From: Leptospiraceae bacterium
Lineage (GTDB): Bacteria; Spirochaetota; Leptospiria; Leptospirales; Leptospiraceae
Length of the DNA stretch: 38,103 nt
Direction: 5' to 3'
NCBI GenBank assembly: GCA_017996175.1
Contig: JAGOHK010000041.1
Span: forward strand, 1 to 38,103
Part shown: positions 6,509 through 37,801 of the stretch, in pieces
Numbering within the stretch: the first letter of the stretch is position 1
How the letters are laid out: each line of letters begins with the position of its first letter
Notes under the pieces: model-generated
Seen by the model: only the letters and a program-made list of their open reading frames with translations
What the model was told of the DNA's origin: nothing
Database searches by the model: none
Translations under genes and position numbers: made by a program

Positions 6509-6754
6509 ATGACAAAAGTAATTACTATGAGAATAGATGAAACTATATTAAAACAATTTAACAATTTTGCTAAGTTAGAAAATCGATCTTTATCCAATTT
6601 TATCGAAACAGCAACGAAAAAGTATATTAATGAAATGGAATTGACCAGTGATTTTGAAACAAAAGAAATTTTAGAAGACAAACAACTTTTGAAGAAAATT
6701 GAGAGTGGGCGAAAAGATGCTAAAGCTAGACGAGGTAAGTTTGTCAAAGTTTAG
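6509..6754 (+). CDS. Putative type II antitoxin (small helical/RHH-like DNA-binding protein) paired with RelE/ParE toxin
   Basis: 81 aa, immediately upstream of and overlapping a RelE/ParE-like toxin; N-terminal MRIDETILKQFNNFAKLENRSLSNFIE resembles RHH antitoxins. Confidence 0.5.
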   Translation: MTKVITMRIDETILKQFNNFAKLENRSLSNFIETATKKYINEMELTSDFETKEILEDKQLLKKIESGRKDAKARRGKFVKV

Positions 6755-7019
6755 AATTTTTGAAACAACTCAATTTCAATCCGATCTAGAAAAACTCCCA
6801 AAGAAAATGAAAACCATGATTGAGAATAAACTCAAGGCATATGTATATCCCCAATTGTCCCAAGAACCAAGCTGCGGATTAAATATTAAAAAGTTAAAAA
6901 ATTACACTCCTGCTACATGGAGATATAGAATTGGAAATTATAGAATCTTTTATCAAATTGATGAAACAGAAAGCATCGTGTTTATCCTTTCCGTTGATCT
7001 TCGAAAAGATGCATACTAA
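6717..7019 (+). CDS. RelE/ParE-family type II toxin
   Basis: ~100 aa; C-terminal WRYRIGNYRIFYQIDETESIVFILSVDLRKDAY is the RelE/ParE core; ATG at 6717 (ORF track extends to TTG 6699). Confidence 0.75.
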   Translation: MLKLDEVSLSKFRIFETTQFQSDLEKLPKKMKTMIENKLKAYVYPQLSQEPSCGLNIKKLKNYTPATWRYRIGNYRIFYQIDETESIVFILSVDLRKDAY

Positions 7020-21503: not shown

Positions 21504-22058
21504 TTAGATAATTTCAGCTAGACTAATGAGTTTGTTCGTAAGCGGGATTAAAATTTTTTCTTCAAGTCCAACTGCTTTTTGAAAAGTATATTTTCCGTTA
21601 ATAGGATTTTCGAATACTAAGATTTTTTGATTTTGCAAATCTAAAATCCAGTAGATAGAAATATTGGCTGAGGCATAAATATCTGCTTTGTACAAATCAT
21701 CTTCGAGAGAACTAAAGGTTACTTCCACAACAAAAGCCGCTGTCTCTGGATATTTGTCTCCGAAGTCGTCATAGTTTCCTTCGAGAAGAGAAATATCTGG
21801 CTCTGGTTCTGAATCAGCTATCTTGATTGGACTTTCTTGCAATACGATAAATCTTTCTGGGATGGCAGAGCTTAAAATATCTCGGAGTTTATTTACTACT
21901 TTTCGATGTTTGGGTGAGATTGTTATTTTACGTACAACGATTCCATGAATGAGTTCGGTATTGCGCGGCAAAATTCCAATAGTGCCTAATTTATGATAGG
22001 TATCCAAATCATATTGAAAGATTTTTTTTACCCTAGACTCAGTCAATACAGAACTCAT
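21504..22058 (-). CDS. Uma2-family (DUF820) putative PD-(D/E)xK endonuclease
   Basis: AAFVVEVTFSSLEDDLYKADIYASANISIYWILDL matches the Uma2 core (E..V.S......D...K...Y...G..EYWI.D). Confidence 0.7.
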   Translation of the reverse strand: MSSVLTESRVKKIFQYDLDTYHKLGTIGILPRNTELIHGIVVRKITISPKHRKVVNKLRDILSSAIPERFIVLQESPIKIADSEPEPDISLLEGNYDDFGDKYPETAAFVVEVTFSSLEDDLYKADIYASANISIYWILDLQNQKILVFENPINGKYTFQKAVGLEEKILIPLTNKLISLAEII

Positions 22059-25412: not shown

Positions 25413-26353
25413 TGGACATTGAGTTTCCAGAAAATCTAATTTACTTAGAGAAAAGCCCACGTCACCCCAATTTATATGATGTGAGCCTCCATGGAATCGA
25501 TAAGTTAACAGAGTACGACTCGATAGAAATTCATATAGTACTTTATCCGTACAGTAGAAGAATCAGCTCTGAACAGGTTAGCTTTTATCCGTTCGAAGAA
25601 TATGTAAAAGACGTAGAGTCAAATCATCTTTCTGCGTATTCAAAGATGCTTCCTAAATTTCAAAAGTTTTTTGGTCTAACACTTGGTTCTCTCATTGCTG
25701 GAATATTTTACAAATACAAACCCGATGATTTATTTTCTGTAGAATCTATTGTTGCAGTATTTGCGGCATACTCTATCGGCAAGGAAATGTGGTCGGATAT
25801 AGAAAGATTTTTTATCAATATTTCTAAACGTTCTAGAATGCGTTATACGGAAGACTACTATCGCTATGAGTTAGAAAAATTTACTACGATGACTCACTAT
25901 TCAACACTCGCCAAACAAAAACGTTACGGCAAAACAACATTACTCCCAGAGAAAATTAATTTCTTAGAGTTAAGTAATTCCCAAACTCTTAGAATGTATT
26001 TTGAACTAGCAGAAATCAAAGAAAAAAAAGCCAAATCGGCACATATATTCTCAATCCATATAGACCCAACCCTTCATCCAGATTTTGTAAAATACGGACA
26101 TTTATTCGGAGTTAAACTCAGTTTGAATCAAAAGAAATTTGGCTTCACCAAAAAACTAGAACTATTCCAATCTCTCCATAACCGCGAAAAAGGTTGCCTC
26201 GATGACGAAGAAGTCTGGTCTAAGAATGCTATTTTCTTTCGACGAGTGTTGACAATGGGCAAAATCAAATATTTTCTAGAGCGGGGGCTAATTGCTAGTA
26301 AGTCGCTTATTTCTTATATTGAGCCTAGGTTTGGGAAGAGTCGGAGAGGGTAA
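25412..26353 (+). CDS. Hypothetical protein (313 aa) translationally coupled between PP2C phosphatase and hsdR
   Basis: TAATG overlaps at both ends (25412 and 26353); two hydrophobic segments near residues 85-125; no known motif recognised. Confidence 0.55.
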   Translation: MDIEFPENLIYLEKSPRHPNLYDVSLHGIDKLTEYDSIEIHIVLYPYSRRISSEQVSFYPFEEYVKDVESNHLSAYSKMLPKFQKFFGLTLGSLIAGIFYKYKPDDLFSVESIVAVFAAYSIGKEMWSDIERFFINISKRSRMRYTEDYYRYELEKFTTMTHYSTLAKQKRYGKTTLLPEKINFLELSNSQTLRMYFELAEIKEKKAKSAHIFSIHIDPTLHPDFVKYGHLFGVKLSLNQKKFGFTKKLELFQSLHNREKGCLDDEEVWSKNAIFFRRVLTMGKIKYFLERGLIASKSLISYIEPRFGKSRRG

Positions 26354-28743
26354 TGCTAAGTAAGCGAAACGAATCAGAAACACGCAGAGACTTAATTGAT
26401 CCTGCCCTTTTACAAAATGGCTGGAATGACGCACTCATCAAACGAGAAGAAACTGCTCCGACTGTTGATATCATTGATGGAAAAGCTGTTCGCCGCAAAA
26501 AAGGCAGAACGGACTATACACTTCGTATCCGCTTAAATGAAACATCGCAACCAATCGCTATTGCCCTCATCGAAGCCAAGACAGAATCCGATTCCCCCTC
26601 AAAAGGACTTGAACAAGCAAAATCTTATGCAGATTGTAAACGTTTAAATGTGAAATTTATCTATTCCTCAAATGGACACCAGTTTGTAGAATTCAATCGT
26701 TTCACTAGAGAGACAAGTTCTCCTAAACCCATGTCTGAGTTCCCAAGTCCCGATGATCTCAGAAGAAAATATGAATTTCACATGGGTTTTGGTTTGGCGG
26801 ATACTGTCGCTAAGCCACTCAGTAGCAAATACAAAGGTGGAGAAGACGCAAGACGATACTACCAAGATGCTGCTATCCGTGCTGTGTTAGAAAAAATTGC
26901 CCAATGTAAAACTAAAAAGGAACCGAGTAGAGTATTACTTTCCTTAGCCACTGGCGCTGGAAAAACTTTCATCGCTGTTCACTTGCTTCATAAAATTGCA
27001 ACTGCCGGAGATATGCGAAAAGCTCTTTTTATTTGTGATAGAGACGAACTTAGGTCACAGGGATTAAACGCCTTTAAAAATATATTTGGAAGTGATACCG
27101 CCGAGGTTTACAAAACAGGGGATAATCGAAATAACGCGAAGAATGCAAAGATTCATATTGCAACCTATCAGACTTTAGGAATAGACAAAAAAGAAGAAGA
27201 GAACGACGAAGTATCGGAAAGTTTTTTAAATCAATTCTACTCAGAGAATGAATTTAGTCATATAATCATTGATGAATGCCATCGCTCTGCTTGGGGCAAA
27301 TGGTCTGAAATTTTAAAAAAGAATCCTGATGCAGTCCAAGTAGGGCTAACAGCGACTCCGCGCCAGTTGATCGATGACAACAAAAATGACTCTGAGATAA
27401 GTGCGAATAATTTCAAATACTTCGGCGAACCTGTCTATGAATATGACATCAGCCAAGGAATCGAAGATGGATACCTTGCCGCTTGTGAAATTCTAAAAGG
27501 TAGAGTCAATATTGATGACACTGGTTTAACACTCGCACAGATAATCAAACTTAAACCCAAAGATTATATCACTGGAAGATTATTAAGTGAGAAAGAGCTA
27601 AAAGACATTTACGAAAAGAACGACTACGAAGGGAAAATTCTTTTACCCGATAGAGTCGCAGCGATGTGTAAAGACTTGTTTGACTATCTATGTGAATCGG
27701 GAAAACCCGAACAGAAAACCGTTATATTTTGCACTAGAGACACTCATTGTGATTTGGTAGTCGCCGAGCTAGAAAGAATTTATAAAAAGTATTGTGATGA
27801 AAACAATCGAGAGCCTAAGGAGCATTTTGCGTTCAAATGTACGACTGCCGGTGGAAGTGAAAATCTCCAAACCTTCAAAGGAAATCCCGAAAGATACTTC
27901 ATAGCGGCTACTGTTGATTTGCTTTCTACGGGTGTTGATATTCCTAGACTCCAAAATGTAGTATTCTTTCGGTATTTGAAATCAGCGATTACATTTTACC
28001 AAATGGTCGGTCGTGGAACGAGACTTGATCCTGAATCCAACAAACTCATGTTTCGAGTTTATGATTATACAAATTGCACTCGACTTTTCGGAAAAGAATT
28101 TCTATCTAAACTAACCAAAGAAAAATCAGACAAAAAAACCGGTGGTGGTGGCGGTGATCCAGAGCCTGTCATACTTCCCTACGTGGAAGGATTTGACGAT
28201 ATTCTAGTTCATTATGTAGATCATCAAATGCTCATCTCAGAAGAAGGAAAGGCAAAACCTGTGAGTATCGACATTTACAAACAGCGTGTTGTCGATGTTC
28301 TAGTTCACTCTTCCGAAACTGTAGAATTTTTTCGCAAAACATGGATTGAACCACAAGAAAGAAAATCTCTCATGGAAAGACTTCCCTCTAACGGCAAATC
28401 CGCATTAGTCGTTCAAAAGCTAACCAATATGTCCGACTTTGACCTCTTTGACGTATTAGCCGAACTTGGCTACCACACCGAGCCGCAAACCAGAAAAGGT
28501 AGAGTCTCTAACTTCCTAGCGCATAACAAAGATTGGCTTCTCGCTTTTCCCAAACGCACTTCTTCTGTTCTACAAGAAATTCTAAACCAATTCATAAAAG
28601 GCGGAACCGAAATTCTAGAAAGCGGCTACTTATTCCAAGTCCCCGAAATCAACCGCGCCGGTGGTATTATTGGTCTAAAAGAATCCGGCTTGGCACCGAG
28701 AGAACTTTTACAGGAAACGAAATGGAAGCTATTCACTGTCTGA
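26353..28743 (+). CDS. hsdR: Type I restriction enzyme R subunit (HsdR), short EcoEI-like (type IB) architecture
   Basis: N-terminal PD-(D/E)xK (DYTLRI...ALIEAK), SF2 helicase motifs GAGKTFIAV, DECH (IIIDECHRS), LTATP, QMVGRGTR; ~800 aa with EcoEI-type C-terminal region. Confidence 0.85.
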   Translation: MLSKRNESETRRDLIDPALLQNGWNDALIKREETAPTVDIIDGKAVRRKKGRTDYTLRIRLNETSQPIAIALIEAKTESDSPSKGLEQAKSYADCKRLNVKFIYSSNGHQFVEFNRFTRETSSPKPMSEFPSPDDLRRKYEFHMGFGLADTVAKPLSSKYKGGEDARRYYQDAAIRAVLEKIAQCKTKKEPSRVLLSLATGAGKTFIAVHLLHKIATAGDMRKALFICDRDELRSQGLNAFKNIFGSDTAEVYKTGDNRNNAKNAKIHIATYQTLGIDKKEEENDEVSESFLNQFYSENEFSHIIIDECHRSAWGKWSEILKKNPDAVQVGLTATPRQLIDDNKNDSEISANNFKYFGEPVYEYDISQGIEDGYLAACEILKGRVNIDDTGLTLAQIIKLKPKDYITGRLLSEKELKDIYEKNDYEGKILLPDRVAAMCKDLFDYLCESGKPEQKTVIFCTRDTHCDLVVAELERIYKKYCDENNREPKEHFAFKCTTAGGSENLQTFKGNPERYFIAATVDLLSTGVDIPRLQNVVFFRYLKSAITFYQMVGRGTRLDPESNKLMFRVYDYTNCTRLFGKEFLSKLTKEKSDKKTGGGGGDPEPVILPYVEGFDDILVHYVDHQMLISEEGKAKPVSIDIYKQRVVDVLVHSSETVEFFRKTWIEPQERKSLMERLPSNGKSALVVQKLTNMSDFDLFDVLAELGYHTEPQTRKGRVSNFLAHNKDWLLAFPKRTSSVLQEILNQFIKGGTEILESGYLFQVPEINRAGGIIGLKESGLAPRELLQETKWKLFTV

Positions 28744-28857
28744 ATCGCGGATTATACGGATTAAGGGATTACACGGATTGGACTTAATTGAAAAAAATAA
28801 ATCTGCGGAATCCATAAAATCTGTGCTCAAATCTGCGATCAAGGATTATGCTTAATA
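28737..28857 (+). repeat. Direct repeat copy A: remnant of hsdS 5-prime end (encodes SESRIIRIKGLHGLDLIEKNKSAESIKSVLKSAIKDYA*)
   Basis: ~86% identical over the first 42 nt to the start of hsdS at 29236 (tgtctgaatcgcggat...), homologous at protein level; coordinates approximate. Confidence 0.7.
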
Positions 28858-29243
28858 TGAATACTGATTTAAAATATGAGGACATTACTAAAAAGATAAT
28901 TGGGGCTTCGTTTGAGGTTCATAAATTTTTAGGGAACGGATTTCAGGAAGTTATCTATCAAAGAGCCTTAGCTTATGAAATGAAAATGGCCGGTTTAGAA
29001 TTTGACAGAGAAATTGAACAAAATATTTATTATAAAGAATTAGAAAAACCAATCGGAAAAAGAAGAGCTGATTTTGTAGTAGAAGGAAAAGTCTTAGTGG
29101 AACTTAAAGCAATCATTCAACTTGAAGATGTGCATTTAGCACAAGCTCTCAACTATCTAAAAGCCTATAAATTAGAAGTTGGATTACTCATAAACTTCGG
29201 TAGCAAAAGTTTAACATTTAAGAGGTTGGTGAAAAGTGTCTGA
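28848..29243 (+). CDS. GxxExxY-family protein (small PD-(D/E)xK-like protein often embedded in R-M loci)
   Basis: 131 aa; motif GNGFQEVIYQ (GxxExxY), family-typical length and DFVVEGKVLVELK core. Confidence 0.75.
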   Translation: MLNMNTDLKYEDITKKIIGASFEVHKFLGNGFQEVIYQRALAYEMKMAGLEFDREIEQNIYYKELEKPIGKRRADFVVEGKVLVELKAIIQLEDVHLAQALNYLKAYKLEVGLLINFGSKSLTFKRLVKSV

Positions 29244-30456
29244 ATCGCGGATGACACAGATTAAAGGATTACGCGGACAAGAAAAAGAAAATCAATCCGT
29301 GAAATCTGCGTCATCCTTTAAATCCGCGATTCTGACAAGTGATGCAGTGAAGCTGGGCGATATGTGTGAGCTTATTAGTGGTCAGCATATTGAGGCAGAC
29401 AATTATAACACTGATAGTATTGGAACGCCGTATTTAACGGGTCCGTCTGACTTTGGTTTGTTACATCCTATCATAACACGATGGACTGAATATCCAAAAG
29501 TCTTAGCAAAGAAAAATGATATACTCATTACAGTTAAAGGTTCAGGAACTGGTAAGCTAAACATCTTAGACAATGAATTAACGTGTATTAGCCGTCAATT
29601 AATGGCAATAAGAGTAAAGAGCAATGTGAATAATCTTTACCTCTATTATTATTTGGATAATATATATGCTCACTTCCAGAATGAATCCGAAGGGTCAGCA
29701 ATTCCAGGTATCGGTCGAGAGGATATTCTAAAAATTCCAATCCCTCTCCCGCCAATCACCATCCAAAAAGAAATCGCGGATTACCTACAATTTCGCCTAA
29801 CGTGTGTGGAAGAGGCAAAACAAGCAGTGAAAGCAGAACTCGAAGCCGTTAAATCATTGAAGCAAGCGTATTTGAGAGAAGTGTTTTCTTCCGAGCAAAG
29901 CAAAGATTGGGGCAAAGTAAAATTAGGCGATATGTGTGAAAATTTGGATAGTAAACGTGTTCCAATTACTTCAAATGTTCGCAATAAGGGAAACATTCCT
30001 TATTATGGGGCTTCAGGCGTAGTTGATTATGTAGAAGATTACATTTTTGATGAAGACTTGTTACTTGTAAGTGAGGACGGTGCAAATTTAATTTCAAGGA
30101 CTCAACCGATAGCTTTTTCTATATCCGGTAAAACTTGGATTAATAATCATGCACATGTTTTAAAGTTTGAAAGTAGGATTACCCAGCAATTTGTTGAGTT
30201 TTATATTAATTATGCTGACATTAATATTTTCGTTTCAGGTTCCGCTCAACCTAAGTTGAATCAAGAAAACTTAAATAAAATCCCAATCCCACTCCCGCCA
30301 CTCGCCGTCCAAAAAGAAATCGCCGACTATTTACAAACGAAGTTTACAACTGTGGATACTCTTGTGCAGGCGCTCACGGAGAAGAAGAAGGCTATAGATG
30401 ATTTGCCGCAGGCGTTTTTGAGGGAAGTGTTTGGTAACACGGATGGAGCGGGTTAG
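29236..30456 (+). CDS. hsdS: Type I restriction-modification specificity subunit HsdS (two TRDs, two conserved repeats)
   Basis: Internal repeats KIPIPLPPITIQKEIADYLQ and KIPIPLPPLAVQKEIADYLQ after each target-recognition domain; LGD start motif of TRD1 at residue 40 after a 38-aa N-terminal extension. Confidence 0.85.
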   Translation: MSESRMTQIKGLRGQEKENQSVKSASSFKSAILTSDAVKLGDMCELISGQHIEADNYNTDSIGTPYLTGPSDFGLLHPIITRWTEYPKVLAKKNDILITVKGSGTGKLNILDNELTCISRQLMAIRVKSNVNNLYLYYYLDNIYAHFQNESEGSAIPGIGREDILKIPIPLPPITIQKEIADYLQFRLTCVEEAKQAVKAELEAVKSLKQAYLREVFSSEQSKDWGKVKLGDMCENLDSKRVPITSNVRNKGNIPYYGASGVVDYVEDYIFDEDLLLVSEDGANLISRTQPIAFSISGKTWINNHAHVLKFESRITQQFVEFYINYADINIFVSGSAQPKLNQENLNKIPIPLPPLAVQKEIADYLQTKFTTVDTLVQALTEKKKAIDDLPQAFLREVFGNTDGAG

Positions 30457-30530
30457 GGGACTGCACGGATTGGGCTTAATTGAAAAAAGTAAATCTGTGG
30501 AATCTATACAATCAGTGGTCAAAAAGAGAT
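30440..30530 (+). repeat. Direct repeat copy C: third copy of hsdS 5-prime segment immediately after hsdS stop
   Basis: ggggactgcacggattgggcttaattgaaaaaagtaaatctgtggaatc... is ~86% identical to copy A at 28766-28830; coordinates approximate. Confidence 0.65.
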
Positions 30531-30581: not shown

Positions 30582-30791
30582 ATGAGTGAACTCGAATTAA
30601 AATTTAATAGTTTAAATTTCAATGAGCAAAGGATAATTTTAGATATGGTGAATCTTTTAATTCTTAGAAAAAATCCTAGCAAGCTCTCGGAATATAAGAA
30701 AAAAATACTCACAATTTCTACTTGGTCTGAGGATGACCTAAAAGTATTTGAAGAAAATAAAATTGTTAATTGGAATGTGCCTTCATGGTAA
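30582..30791 (+). CDS. Putative antitoxin of VapBC-like pair
   Basis: 69 aa ORF whose stop overlaps (ATGGTAA) the start of a PIN-domain gene. Confidence 0.5.
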   Translation: MSELELKFNSLNFNEQRIILDMVNLLILRKNPSKLSEYKKKILTISTWSEDDLKVFEENKIVNWNVPSW

Positions 30792-31162
30792 TTGATACTA
30801 ATATTTTCATTGAATATCTTCGTGCTACGAAAAAAAATGATACCACATTACAACGATTACCCGATGAGTCTGATTGGTATGTATCAAGTATAACAATTTA
30901 TGAATTATTCATGGGTGCTAATACAGTAAAGAAAAAAGAAGAAATTAAAGTTTTAACCAGTGATTTAATTTTGCTTCCTTTCAATTATGACACAGCAATG
31001 AAGTCCGCAGAAATTTATAACGATTTAAAGTCAAAAAATCAGATTATTGAGTTTAGAGACATTTTTATTGGAGCAACTGCAATTTTAAACCATTTACCAG
31101 TATTAACTCTAAACCGTAAACATTTCGAAAGAATAGATGGAATCAAAATATATGAAAACTAA
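30785..31162 (+). CDS. PIN-domain toxin (VapC-like)
   Basis: MVIDTNIFIEYL... with the conserved acidic residues of PIN domains (D4, E43 region YELFMG, D95-like DIFIGATA); ATG 30785. Confidence 0.75.
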   Translation: MVIDTNIFIEYLRATKKNDTTLQRLPDESDWYVSSITIYELFMGANTVKKKEEIKVLTSDLILLPFNYDTAMKSAEIYNDLKSKNQIIEFRDIFIGATAILNHLPVLTLNRKHFERIDGIKIYEN

Positions 31163-31227: not shown

Positions 31228-31494
31228 ATGATAACCGCTCAAATGGAACCAATGAATATAGAAGCAAAAAAAATTGAATTAATTTCTAAAATTACTCGAT
31301 TGATTGATTACTCAATTCTGCTTGAGTTAGAAAAGATTTTGTATTTATCCGAGCAGGAAACCGAGGAGTGGGATACTCTAACAAACTTGGAAAAGGAAAA
31401 AATTGAAAAAGGATTAGATAGTATAAAACAAGGAAAAGTCATTTCCCATGCTACAGCTAAACAAAAAATAGATCAATTTATAAAAGAGTTATGA
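31228..31494 (+). CDS. Putative antitoxin (addiction-module component) of RelE/ParE pair
   Basis: 88 aa helical protein directly upstream (1-nt gap) of a RelE/ParE-like toxin. Confidence 0.5.
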   Translation: MITAQMEPMNIEAKKIELISKITRLIDYSILLELEKILYLSEQETEEWDTLTNLEKEKIEKGLDSIKQGKVISHATAKQKIDQFIKEL

Positions 31495-31495
31495 A

Positions 31496-31813
31496 ATGTC
31501 TTATGAAGTAAAATGGTCAGACGATGCTCTTTTAGATTTTCAAGAAATTTTACGGTATCTACATGACAATTGGGGAACTAATTCTGTTATAAAATTTCAA
31601 ACAAAAGTTGAAAAAGAAATTGATACAATTTCTGAAATGCCTGGAATATTTCCTTTTATAAATAAATTAAAACGGATTCGCCGATGTGTTCTTGTAAAAC
31701 AAGTCTCTCTGTATTATATGGAACTAGAAATTGAAAGAGAAATATATATTATCCGCTTTTTGGATAATCGACAGGATCCAAAGATGATTCAGGAAGAATT
31801 AAATAAATATTAA
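31496..31813 (+). CDS. RelE/ParE-family toxin
   Basis: 105 aa; MSYEVKWSDDALLDFQEI...RRCVLVKQVSLYYMELEIEREIYIIRFLDNRQDP follows the RelE/ParE pattern (W...A..D......R..YR....I.I......R). Confidence 0.7.
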   Translation: MSYEVKWSDDALLDFQEILRYLHDNWGTNSVIKFQTKVEKEIDTISEMPGIFPFINKLKRIRRCVLVKQVSLYYMELEIEREIYIIRFLDNRQDPKMIQEELNKY

Positions 31814-32542
31814 TGACTAAACCAACTAAAAAATTTACAACCCAAGCAAGCCTTGACTCACATATTTGGGCGGCGTGTGATATTTTGCGTCGTTCCAATT
31901 GTGCGGGTGCTTTGCAGTATGTGCCGGAACTAACATGGCTTTTATTTTTACGCATCCTTGACATTAAGGAAGAAAGAGAAGCAGAAGTAGCCGCTACTCT
32001 AAGTAAACCATACCAATTTTCCTTGGAAGAACCTTATCGCTGGAAAGACTGGGCGGCTCCCTTTGATAAAAAAGAATTAGAGAAAAATCCTAAAGCACAA
32101 GGTAACAAGCGTTATACGCTCACAGAAAAAAGTAGTTCTGGAACGTATTTTCAATTTGTAAACCAAGACTTACTTCCCTATCTTAAAAAGCTTAGAGATA
32201 AACCAAATGCAACTTCTCGCCAAAAAGTAATTAGCGAAATGGTTGCGAGTGTAGATAGAACAAAAGTGGACTCCGAAAAAAACTGCAAAGCTAGAAGCGG
32301 ATACTTTACGTAAGTCGGCAAAGGTGATTCAAGATACAAATCCAATTTTGGACAAAAAACAAGAAGAGGAAGTCAAAGACCTTCTAAAAAAAGCTTCCGC
32401 GATAGAAGATTCAGTCTATGATTTAAAGGCGGTCAATCCAAATCGAAAATCAGAAGAAGACAATCGAACTCCGAAAGAGCTAATTGACTTTATACAAAAG
32501 AAAGACACGGAAATAAGCAAACTACTTGCTAGCCTTTCCTAA
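31813..32542 (+). pseudogene. hsdM: hsdM remnant: N-terminal domain (166 codons) fused out of frame to a C-terminal coiled-coil tail; catalytic MTase domain deleted
   Basis: 31813-32313 encodes an HsdM_N-like domain (TQASLDSHIWAACDILRR...YLKKLRDKPNATSRQKVISEMVASVDRTKV) then stops; the downstream frame (KTAKLEADTLRK...PKELIDFIQKKDTEISKLLASLS) resembles an HsdM C-terminal helix; no FxGxG or NPPF/Y motifs anywhere. Confidence 0.65.
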
Positions 32543-32645: not shown

Positions 32646-32685
32646 ATCGGTGTCCATCGGTGTCCATCGGTGTCCATCGGTGGTA
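32646..32685 (+). repeat. 10-bp tandem repeat (atcggtgtcc) x3.7 in the ilvD 5-prime region
   Basis: atcggtgtcc atcggtgtcc atcggtgtcc atcggtgg, 28-67 nt upstream of ilvD ATG. Confidence 0.85.
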
Positions 32686-37564: not shown

Positions 37565-37801
37565 ATGGCAGAAAAATCGCCTAAATGGAAAAAGTGGATT
37601 TTATATTCCGAAGAAGATTTACTTAGCGCAGAAACCTTATTATCCATCGAAAATACTTTTCCTAGAAACGTATGCTATTTGAGTAAACAATCAATTGAAA
37701 AAGCTCTAAAAGCTATATTCATATTTCTGAATATGTCTTTTGCAAAAATTCATGATTTAGAAGCGATATACGCCAAGCTTCCGATCTTGCGTAACGATTA
37801 A
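37565..37801 (+). CDS. HEPN-domain protein (short, possibly truncated)
   Basis: SEEDLLSAETLLSIENTFPRNVCYLSKQSIEKALKAIFIF...IHDLEAI matches the HEPN pattern (A..LL....Y..A.F.AQQA.EKALKA......H.L); only 78 aa. Confidence 0.5.
   Translation: MAEKSPKWKKWILYSEEDLLSAETLLSIENTFPRNVCYLSKQSIEKALKAIFIFLNMSFAKIHDLEAIYAKLPILRND

Follow-up and report, generated by a model that had tools for sequence, protein, structure and literature searches.

Type I restriction-modification enzymes require M2S1 both for methylation and for the action of HsdR. In EcoKI, HsdM is divided into an N-terminal domain (residues 1-153), a catalytic domain (154-469) and a C-terminal domain (470-529) (PMC2647291). Two HsdM C-terminal tails and the coiled coil of HsdS form a four-helix bundle, and deletion of the tail abolishes M2S assembly (PMC9613975). 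Loss of HsdM abolishes both restriction and modification, and provides a safe, one-step switch-off of a type I system (PMC12707154). The locus described here resembles the structurally characterised systems of Vibrio vulnificus YJ016 (HsdR, PDB 3H1T; HsdM, 3UFB) and Thermoanaerobacter tengcongensis (M-S complex, 5YBB): its HsdR matches 3H1T with E = 6e-61, and the HsdM encoded by an intact allele of the same locus matches 3UFB with E = 1e-71 and 5YBB with E = 1e-96. HsdR, HsdS and the intact HsdM have the same domain order as in these two systems, and the genes follow the same R-(S)-M order. The locus differs from both in that its hsdM has no catalytic domain, and in having a GxxExxY gene and two toxin-antitoxin pairs set among its hsd genes.

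The window, by which we mean the whole stretch of DNA analysed, is an entire 38,103-bp contig from a metagenome-assembled genome (MAG) of a Leptospiraceae bacterium belonging to a wastewater population, with proteins MBP7282371-81 at NCBI. The type I island within it is flanked by a conserved PP2C-type sensor and a 313-aa gene on one side and by ilvD on the other, and contains the following features:

26353-28743, + strand: intact hsdR of 796 aa, a relative of the EcoAI/type IB family
28848-29243, + strand: GxxExxY/PDDEXK_3 cargo gene, between hsdR and hsdS (Pfam PDDEXK_3, E = 9e-36; TIGR04256, E = 2e-38)
29236-30456, + strand: hsdS, intact, two TRDs and two conserved coiled-coil regions (Pfam Methylase_S; PADLOC Specificity_I)
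30582-31162, + strand: cassette of a VapB-like gene (30582-30791) and a VapC PIN toxin gene (30770-31162; Pfam PIN, E = 1.5e-16; NCBIfam VapC)
31228-31813, + strand: cassette of a RelB/ParD-like antitoxin gene (31228-31494) and a ParE toxin gene (31496-31813; Pfam ParE_toxin, E = 2e-7)
31813-32283, + strand: hsdM remnant 1, codons 1-157 of 554, covering the N-terminal domain (HsdM_N, tblastn, DNA alignment)
32275-32284, + strand: deletion junction, one copy of GAAAAAAACT, with an A7 run at 32276-32282 (allele comparison)
32285-32542, + strand: hsdM remnant 2, the C-terminal tail (approximately residues 469-554), shifted by +1 from the frame of remnant 1 (translation, tblastn)

An earlier reading of this DNA, made from the sequence only, had taken hsdR and hsdS to be intact, and our analysis agrees. 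The hsdR product is related to the EcoAI/FtnUII (type IB) family, although its score of 441.5 bits against NCBIfam NF046051 (EcoAI family) falls below the 550-bit equivalog cut-off; the alignment is full length, covering positions 2-743 of the 768 in the model. Pfam matches comprise ResIII, SWI2_SNF2, Helicase_C and HSDR_N, and the gene retains the nuclease and SF2 helicase motifs of a type I HsdR (D..EAK, with EAK74; GAGKT201, DECH307, TATP333 and GRGTR553). All five full-length copies of hsdR in related contigs are 796 aa long. The hsdS product matches Pfam Methylase_S in two stretches (E = 1.5e-48) and PADLOC Specificity_I (E = 5e-71), has the two TRDs and two conserved regions of an intact type I specificity subunit, and is annotated by NCBI as 401 aa from an ATG at 29251. 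Neither hsdR nor hsdS carries a lesion in any copy of the locus of the window type.

The state of hsdM is quite different. As reference we used an intact 554-aa HsdM (P0160) encoded on a contig from a related metagenome (L085), in which FFTPR lies at residue 202, CCGTGGF (motif I) at 228 and NPPFG (motif IV) at 317, with Pfam N6_Mtase spanning residues 180-456. The 166-codon open reading frame at 31813-32313 retains the N-terminal domain: it matches Pfam HsdM_N (E = 4e-13), and over codons 1-157 (31813-32283) it shares 97.5% identity with the same residues of the reference (tblastn, E = 2e-99), while its last nine codons (CKARSGYFT) are out-of-frame read-through to a stop at 32313. Homology to the C-terminal tail begins at 32285 and extends over approximately the last 86 residues to a stop at 32542 (tblastn, E = 6e-44); the open reading frame called within it encodes 72 aa, from a GTG at 32324 to the same stop. 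The tail, DLKAVNPN...RTPxEL (RTPKEL in the window), aligns with the C-terminal helix of PDB 5YBB, and its sequence is kept, but in the +1 frame. Both remnants are still open reading frames. Nothing of the catalytic core was recovered: residues 158-455 have no tblastn match anywhere in the 38,103-bp window, FFTPR and CCGTGGF are absent from all six of its frames, an NPPF/Y motif IV is likewise lacking in the window and falls inside the deleted block, and Pfam N6_Mtase matches neither the stub nor the tail, nor any other window open reading frame of at least 90 aa. The description of hsdM as reduced to N- and C-terminal stubs is thus borne out. Correcting a frameshift cannot restore a full-length hsdM, since 935 nt have been lost, and because the 166-aa product is nearly identical to the N-terminus of a 554-aa HsdM, it does not represent a stand-alone protein family.

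At NCBI the 166-aa product (MBP7282378.1) is annotated as [quoted passage not shown], a label it shares with other PGAP entries and which denotes a domain rather than a functional family, and the 72-aa product (MBP7282379.1) as “hypothetical protein”; the former is a truncated version of the 554-aa protein, and the two are better annotated as pieces of one hsdM pseudogene. We also calculated dN/dS for the stubs and obtained omega values of 0.07-0.26 from 4-6 nonsynonymous changes, counts too few to serve as evidence; most of the divergence entering this calculation moreover predates the deletion, and we discarded it as a measure of selection on the remnants.

Gene order does not set the locus apart. 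The sequence-only reading had called the order hsdR-hsdS-hsdM atypical, and this remark turns out to be wrong. When the window HsdR and HsdS and the intact HsdM were compared by tblastn with 80 homologous loci from many phyla, drawn from a scan of species-representative genomes, 52 of the 53 loci with an hsdR match had this gene 5' of hsdM and on its strand, and hsdS sat between the two in all of those in which it was detectable (14/14). This order is the norm for this HsdM family, and should be treated as such. The distance between hsdR and hsdM varies from 1 to 8 kb across homologous loci, which fits frequent insertion of cargo, and the normal order of the system at the present locus is hsdR, hsdS, cargo genes, hsdM.

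DNA alignment of the window with four related alleles places the lesion precisely. Gene nt 472 is joined to approximately nt 1408 at a common GAAAAAAACT, and the 935 nt absent between the two remnants contain the FFTPR, CCGTGGF and NPPFG motifs. The junction reads ...GACTCC-GAAAAAAACT-GCAAAG... in the window. In the intact and frameshifted alleles the left copy of the repeat is TCCGAAAAAAACTTCC at gene nt 463, in the form TCC-GAAAAAAACT-TCC and at codons 155-158, and the right copy lies ~311 codons downstream; this right copy is AAGAAAAAAACTGCA in L001, a contig with a different hsdM deletion (context AAG-AAAAAAACT-GCAAAG), and GAAAAAACTT, at nt 1398/1399, in the intact L085 and the frameshifted L087. 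The earlier proposal that one internal deletion removed the AdoMet-binding and NPPF core is upheld; the actual position of the junction (32275-32284) is at the edge of its estimate of 32280-32325.

One copy of a 10-nt direct repeat kept and 935 nt lost is the signature of a slippage or microhomology deletion, and we infer that replication slippage or illegitimate recombination between the two copies of GAAAAAAACT removed the intervening block. The deletion took residues ~158-468, the entire catalytic domain with its AdoMet-binding and NPPF motifs, and also shifted the C-terminal tail into the +1 frame: the two copies of the repeat stand in different codon phases, so that the fused product passes out of frame, from the N-terminal frame to that of the tail by +1. 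The limits of the deleted block match the borders of the EcoKI catalytic domain (153/154 and 469/470) almost exactly (PMC2647291). The 9-10 nt of microhomology at the deletion sites is one of 12 pairs of 9-mer repeats separated by more than 300 nt in hsdM. The same junction, with its A7 run, occurs in at least 12 independent assemblies made from different samples with different assemblers (SPAdes, MEGAHIT, Logan, NCBI assembly), and is for this reason no assembly artefact. Contigs sharing it are 98.5-100% identical to the window over their common stretch, most of them at least 99.2%, and the A7 tract has the same length in all 13 sequences (13/13).

Comparison with orthologous loci in related strains, which the earlier reading had recommended, recovered hsdM in intact, frameshifted, independently deleted and absent states. 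An intact gene is present on one short contig (L085), seen in two samples, including SRR19226368, and lies 3' of a DUF5615 toxin gene. The frameshift type (L004, L087-L096), whose allele is listed for 50 or more blocks of the index, each block being a set of assemblies, has an A4 to A5 change at GEKGNDGG that splits hsdM into 197-aa and 370-aa open reading frames, and this A5 tract is fixed in 12/12 frameshift alleles. Frameshift-type haplotypes have no hsdR, an hsdS with different TRDs (in L087, conserved regions are near-identical to those of the window and the TRDs differ) and other toxin-antitoxin cassettes 5' of hsdM, and their contigs co-occur with window-type contigs in the same samples. 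A further deletion, seen in L001-L003, joins SEM to MWTIDITQKKKTAKLEAD in frame to leave a 240-aa product, and this allele is present in four contigs from at least three samples. It keeps C-side sequence absent from the window and lacks N-side sequence that the window keeps; the two alleles are therefore not interconvertible by simple deletion, and the L001 type represents a second, independent event. Finally, L115-L120 have no hsd genes at all between a 312-aa gene and ilvD, with hsdM missing precisely between DUF5615 and the conserved hairpin that trails the hsdM stop codon. A scan of 185,579 species-representative genomes failed as a source of an orthologous locus, as it contained no hsdM copy more than 61% identical. 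With a frameshift, a second deletion, complete absence and intact alleles in relatives, the suggestion that the locus is decaying now has population data behind it: this is a strain-variable, decaying defence and toxin-antitoxin island with fast turnover.

For the origin of the L001 junction we considered a two-step route through a GTGGACAAT repeat and rejected it, as the predicted sequence does not equal the observed junction. Another contig (L086, 3719-4541) carries a frameshifted full-length hsdM in which the 33 nt at the N-side deletion site are replaced in frame by a copy of the C-side site (MWTIDITQKKK). This allele could reflect intragenic conversion and be a precursor of the L001 deletion, or could be a chimera; it is known from a single contig at 2.4x coverage.

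Very probably, then, the hsdM of the window is a dead remnant produced by a microhomology deletion, and one of several decay states of a type I island. Since its hsdM lacks the catalytic domain and has the tail in another frame, the locus cannot make M2S1; HsdR would then have nothing to dock on, and an r- m- phenotype is predicted, provided that no other locus in the genome supplies a compatible HsdM. Losing a type I system in this way would not be lethal. Both restriction and modification would be lost, as they are in classical hsdM loss-of-function mutants (PMC12707154). Nothing essential differs from those mutants; the particulars here are that the lesion is a domain-sized microhomology deletion and that a decay series is visible across co-occurring strains. 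The locus also varies between strains in the manner of other degenerate restriction-modification loci in defence islands. From hsdS through to the end of the hsdM tail, window-type haplotypes are nearly invariant (0-3 differences), which indicates that the deletion is probably recent, and a recent deletion would be the simplest reason that hsdR and hsdS still look intact. The event is of a kind already known, an ordinary hsdM pseudogene arising through gene decay in a variable defence island. The result is chiefly useful for annotation. Of modest, secondary interest is the capture by public metagenomes of a decay series of one type I locus in co-occurring strains, an example of the rapid turnover of defence islands and of how often hsdM is hit when such systems are switched off.

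A functional system would persist if another locus in the genome supplied an HsdM of the same family able to assemble with this HsdS and HsdR. Subunits within one family are exchangeable between type I systems (PMC12707154), both genes are free of lesions in every window-type copy, and variation in hsdR is overwhelmingly synonymous, with synonymous to nonsynonymous ratios of 30:3, 13:1 and 4:2 among haplotypes sharing the junction. Taken at face value, such polymorphism could reflect continued purifying selection. However, at dS ~0.06 among haplotypes with the same deletion, hsdR is far more polymorphic than the segment from hsdS to hsdM, and its differences fall in patches next to a 313-aa gene of similar mosaic make-up, a pattern which suggests mosaicism by recombination. 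Because patchy variation in hsdR stands beside an invariant hsdS and invariant downstream genes, import of older variation by recombination explains the pattern equally well; we rejected the polymorphism as proof of selection, and count it neither for nor against continued selection.

Other observations weigh against supply in trans. No second N6_Mtase is encoded within the 38-kb contig, the one contig of the MAG covered here, and the closest hsdM among the species-representative genomes is the 61% match mentioned above. Among the best 120 matches to the catalytic core we found only cross-phylum homologues at ~70% identity and no Leptospiraceae paralogue, a search that says nothing about the MAG itself. 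Sister haplotypes have lost hsdR or the entire system, and this speaks against its being strongly selected in the population. We consequently regard a trans-acting HsdM as unlikely, and the dead-remnant reading as the one to adopt; evidence of a trans-acting hsdM should be required before the locus is classed among active type I systems.

It could also be proposed that deletions confined to the catalytic domain are not pure decay, and that the N-terminal domain and tail together form a catalytically dead “mini-HsdM”, a scaffold or regulator whose tail binds HsdS and whose N-terminal domain possibly contacts HsdR. In the L001 type such a protein would be made directly, at 240 aa, from the in-frame allele carried by the four contigs mentioned above; the window would have to lose one A at the A7 run, by transcriptional slippage, to make it, and removing one A does yield a 239-aa fusion. 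Two independent deletions excise almost exactly the catalytic domain as bordered in EcoKI, the tail is the HsdS anchor (PMC9613975), and mutations on the surface of the HsdM N-terminal domain abolish restriction, for which the authors suggest possible contact with HsdR (PMC2647291). Were this true, a mini-HsdM might serve as a scaffold, or might alleviate restriction by type I systems of its own family in a dominant-negative manner.

Several lines of evidence speak against it. The window allele is out of frame with an A7 tract invariant in 13 sequences, and by eye there is no clear Shine-Dalgarno-like sequence upstream of the GTG start of the tail. The deletion sites have only 9-10 nt of microhomology in common, one of the 12 such pairs in the gene. 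A restriction complex unable to read methylation would attack the DNA of its own cell. Among short homologues we also identified ~12 other internally deleted HsdMs in unrelated metagenomes (P0037, P0079, P0087, P0119, P0299, P0301-P0304, P0306, P0311, P0315), each forming a cluster of only 1-3 sequences and each with a unique junction, lying between residue ~148 and 223 on the N side and between ~280 and 517 on the C side; in both cases where the contig was inspected, the surrounding locus is visibly eroded. These unique junctions indicate sporadic decay rather than a conserved family, and no stand-alone family of HsdM_N only, or of N-terminal domain plus tail, with common boundaries across taxa was found among the ~12. 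On these comparisons a conserved mini-HsdM family is unlikely, and we consider it highly improbable either that the window and L001 products are functional or that such deletions in general are anything but decay. The same set suggests that internal deletion of hsdM is a frequent route of type I inactivation in public metagenomes.

Phase-variable type I systems provide a last comparison: the described examples rely on simple sequence repeats, in hsdM or hsdS, whose length varies between strains (PMC7383803), and the window resembles them in having a homopolymer (A7) within a reading frame, where a one-base change alters the frame, but differs in that its tract is short and invariant (13/13) and that no tract length restores a methyltransferase. 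That the split hsdM is an assembly or sequencing artefact, or an ON/OFF switch at the A7 tract, is hence the least credible of the alternatives, despite the source being a metagenome-assembled genome and a homopolymer lying exactly at the junction, since 935 nt rather than one base are gone, the same junction recurs across samples and assemblers, and even an in-frame tract length gives a product without the catalytic domain.

Beyond hsdM, the island shows exchange of small cassettes. The ParD/ParE cassette is specific to the window-type haplotype, and blastn homology of the window to L001 and L004 breaks at its swap borders, 31206 and 31800. Toxin-antitoxin cassettes between hsdS and hsdM are exchanged among strains with sharp borders: the same position is occupied in L087 (8810-9979) by a 58-aa gene, an MqsA-like gene and DUF433/DUF5615, and in L001 (930-1200) by DUF433 only. 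The last four codons and stop of parE fall within a conserved 13-nt hsdM leader. The GxxExxY gene lies in an insert of ~500 nt bounded by 41-nt direct repeats (28737-28777 and 29237-29277, 88% identical; repeat family D2), so that the 5' end of hsdS is duplicated where hsdR ends, and this insert looks like a small cassette placed at the hsdR/hsdS junction. An 84-nt intergenic element follows both hsdR (28748-28831) and hsdS (30440-30523) at 82% identity, is also found after the hsdS of L001, and may mark cassette boundaries.

In L087 (4133-8118; also in L088-L095), four unrelated genes, encoding 152, 110, 433 and 151 aa, take the place of hsdR and the GxxExxY gene; Pfam gives no match for the first three and only a sub-threshold one, to SH3_3, for the 151-aa gene, and none of the four has a PADLOC match. 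The 375-aa hsdS of the frameshift type carries the N-terminal leader of the window hsdS in its middle, as if it had arisen by fusion of two half-S genes. Downstream of hsdM, a perfect tandem repeat of ATCGGTGTCC (x3.7) occupies 32646-32682, upstream of ilvD; those window-type haplotypes that were checked have the perfect array, L001 and L087 do not, and L115 has a diverged version, ATCGGTGCCCTCGGTGTTCATCGGTGG, at the same position. Promoter and terminator, Rfam and tRNA scans added nothing to this picture.

Elsewhere on the contig, an 844-aa protein encoded at 11099-13633 (- strand) has matches to the Major Vault Protein shoulder, the Vault_3 repeat and SPFH/Band 7, and so appears as an MVP-like protein in a bacterium. 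Further small genes of toxin or defence type encode a second ParE toxin (6699-7019), a Uma2-family putative endonuclease (21504-22058, - strand) and, near the contig end, a HEPN-domain open reading frame (37565-37801). Two DUF1564 paralogues lie at 15024-15692 (- strand) and 17885-18385, and in related contigs another copy adjoins ilvD.
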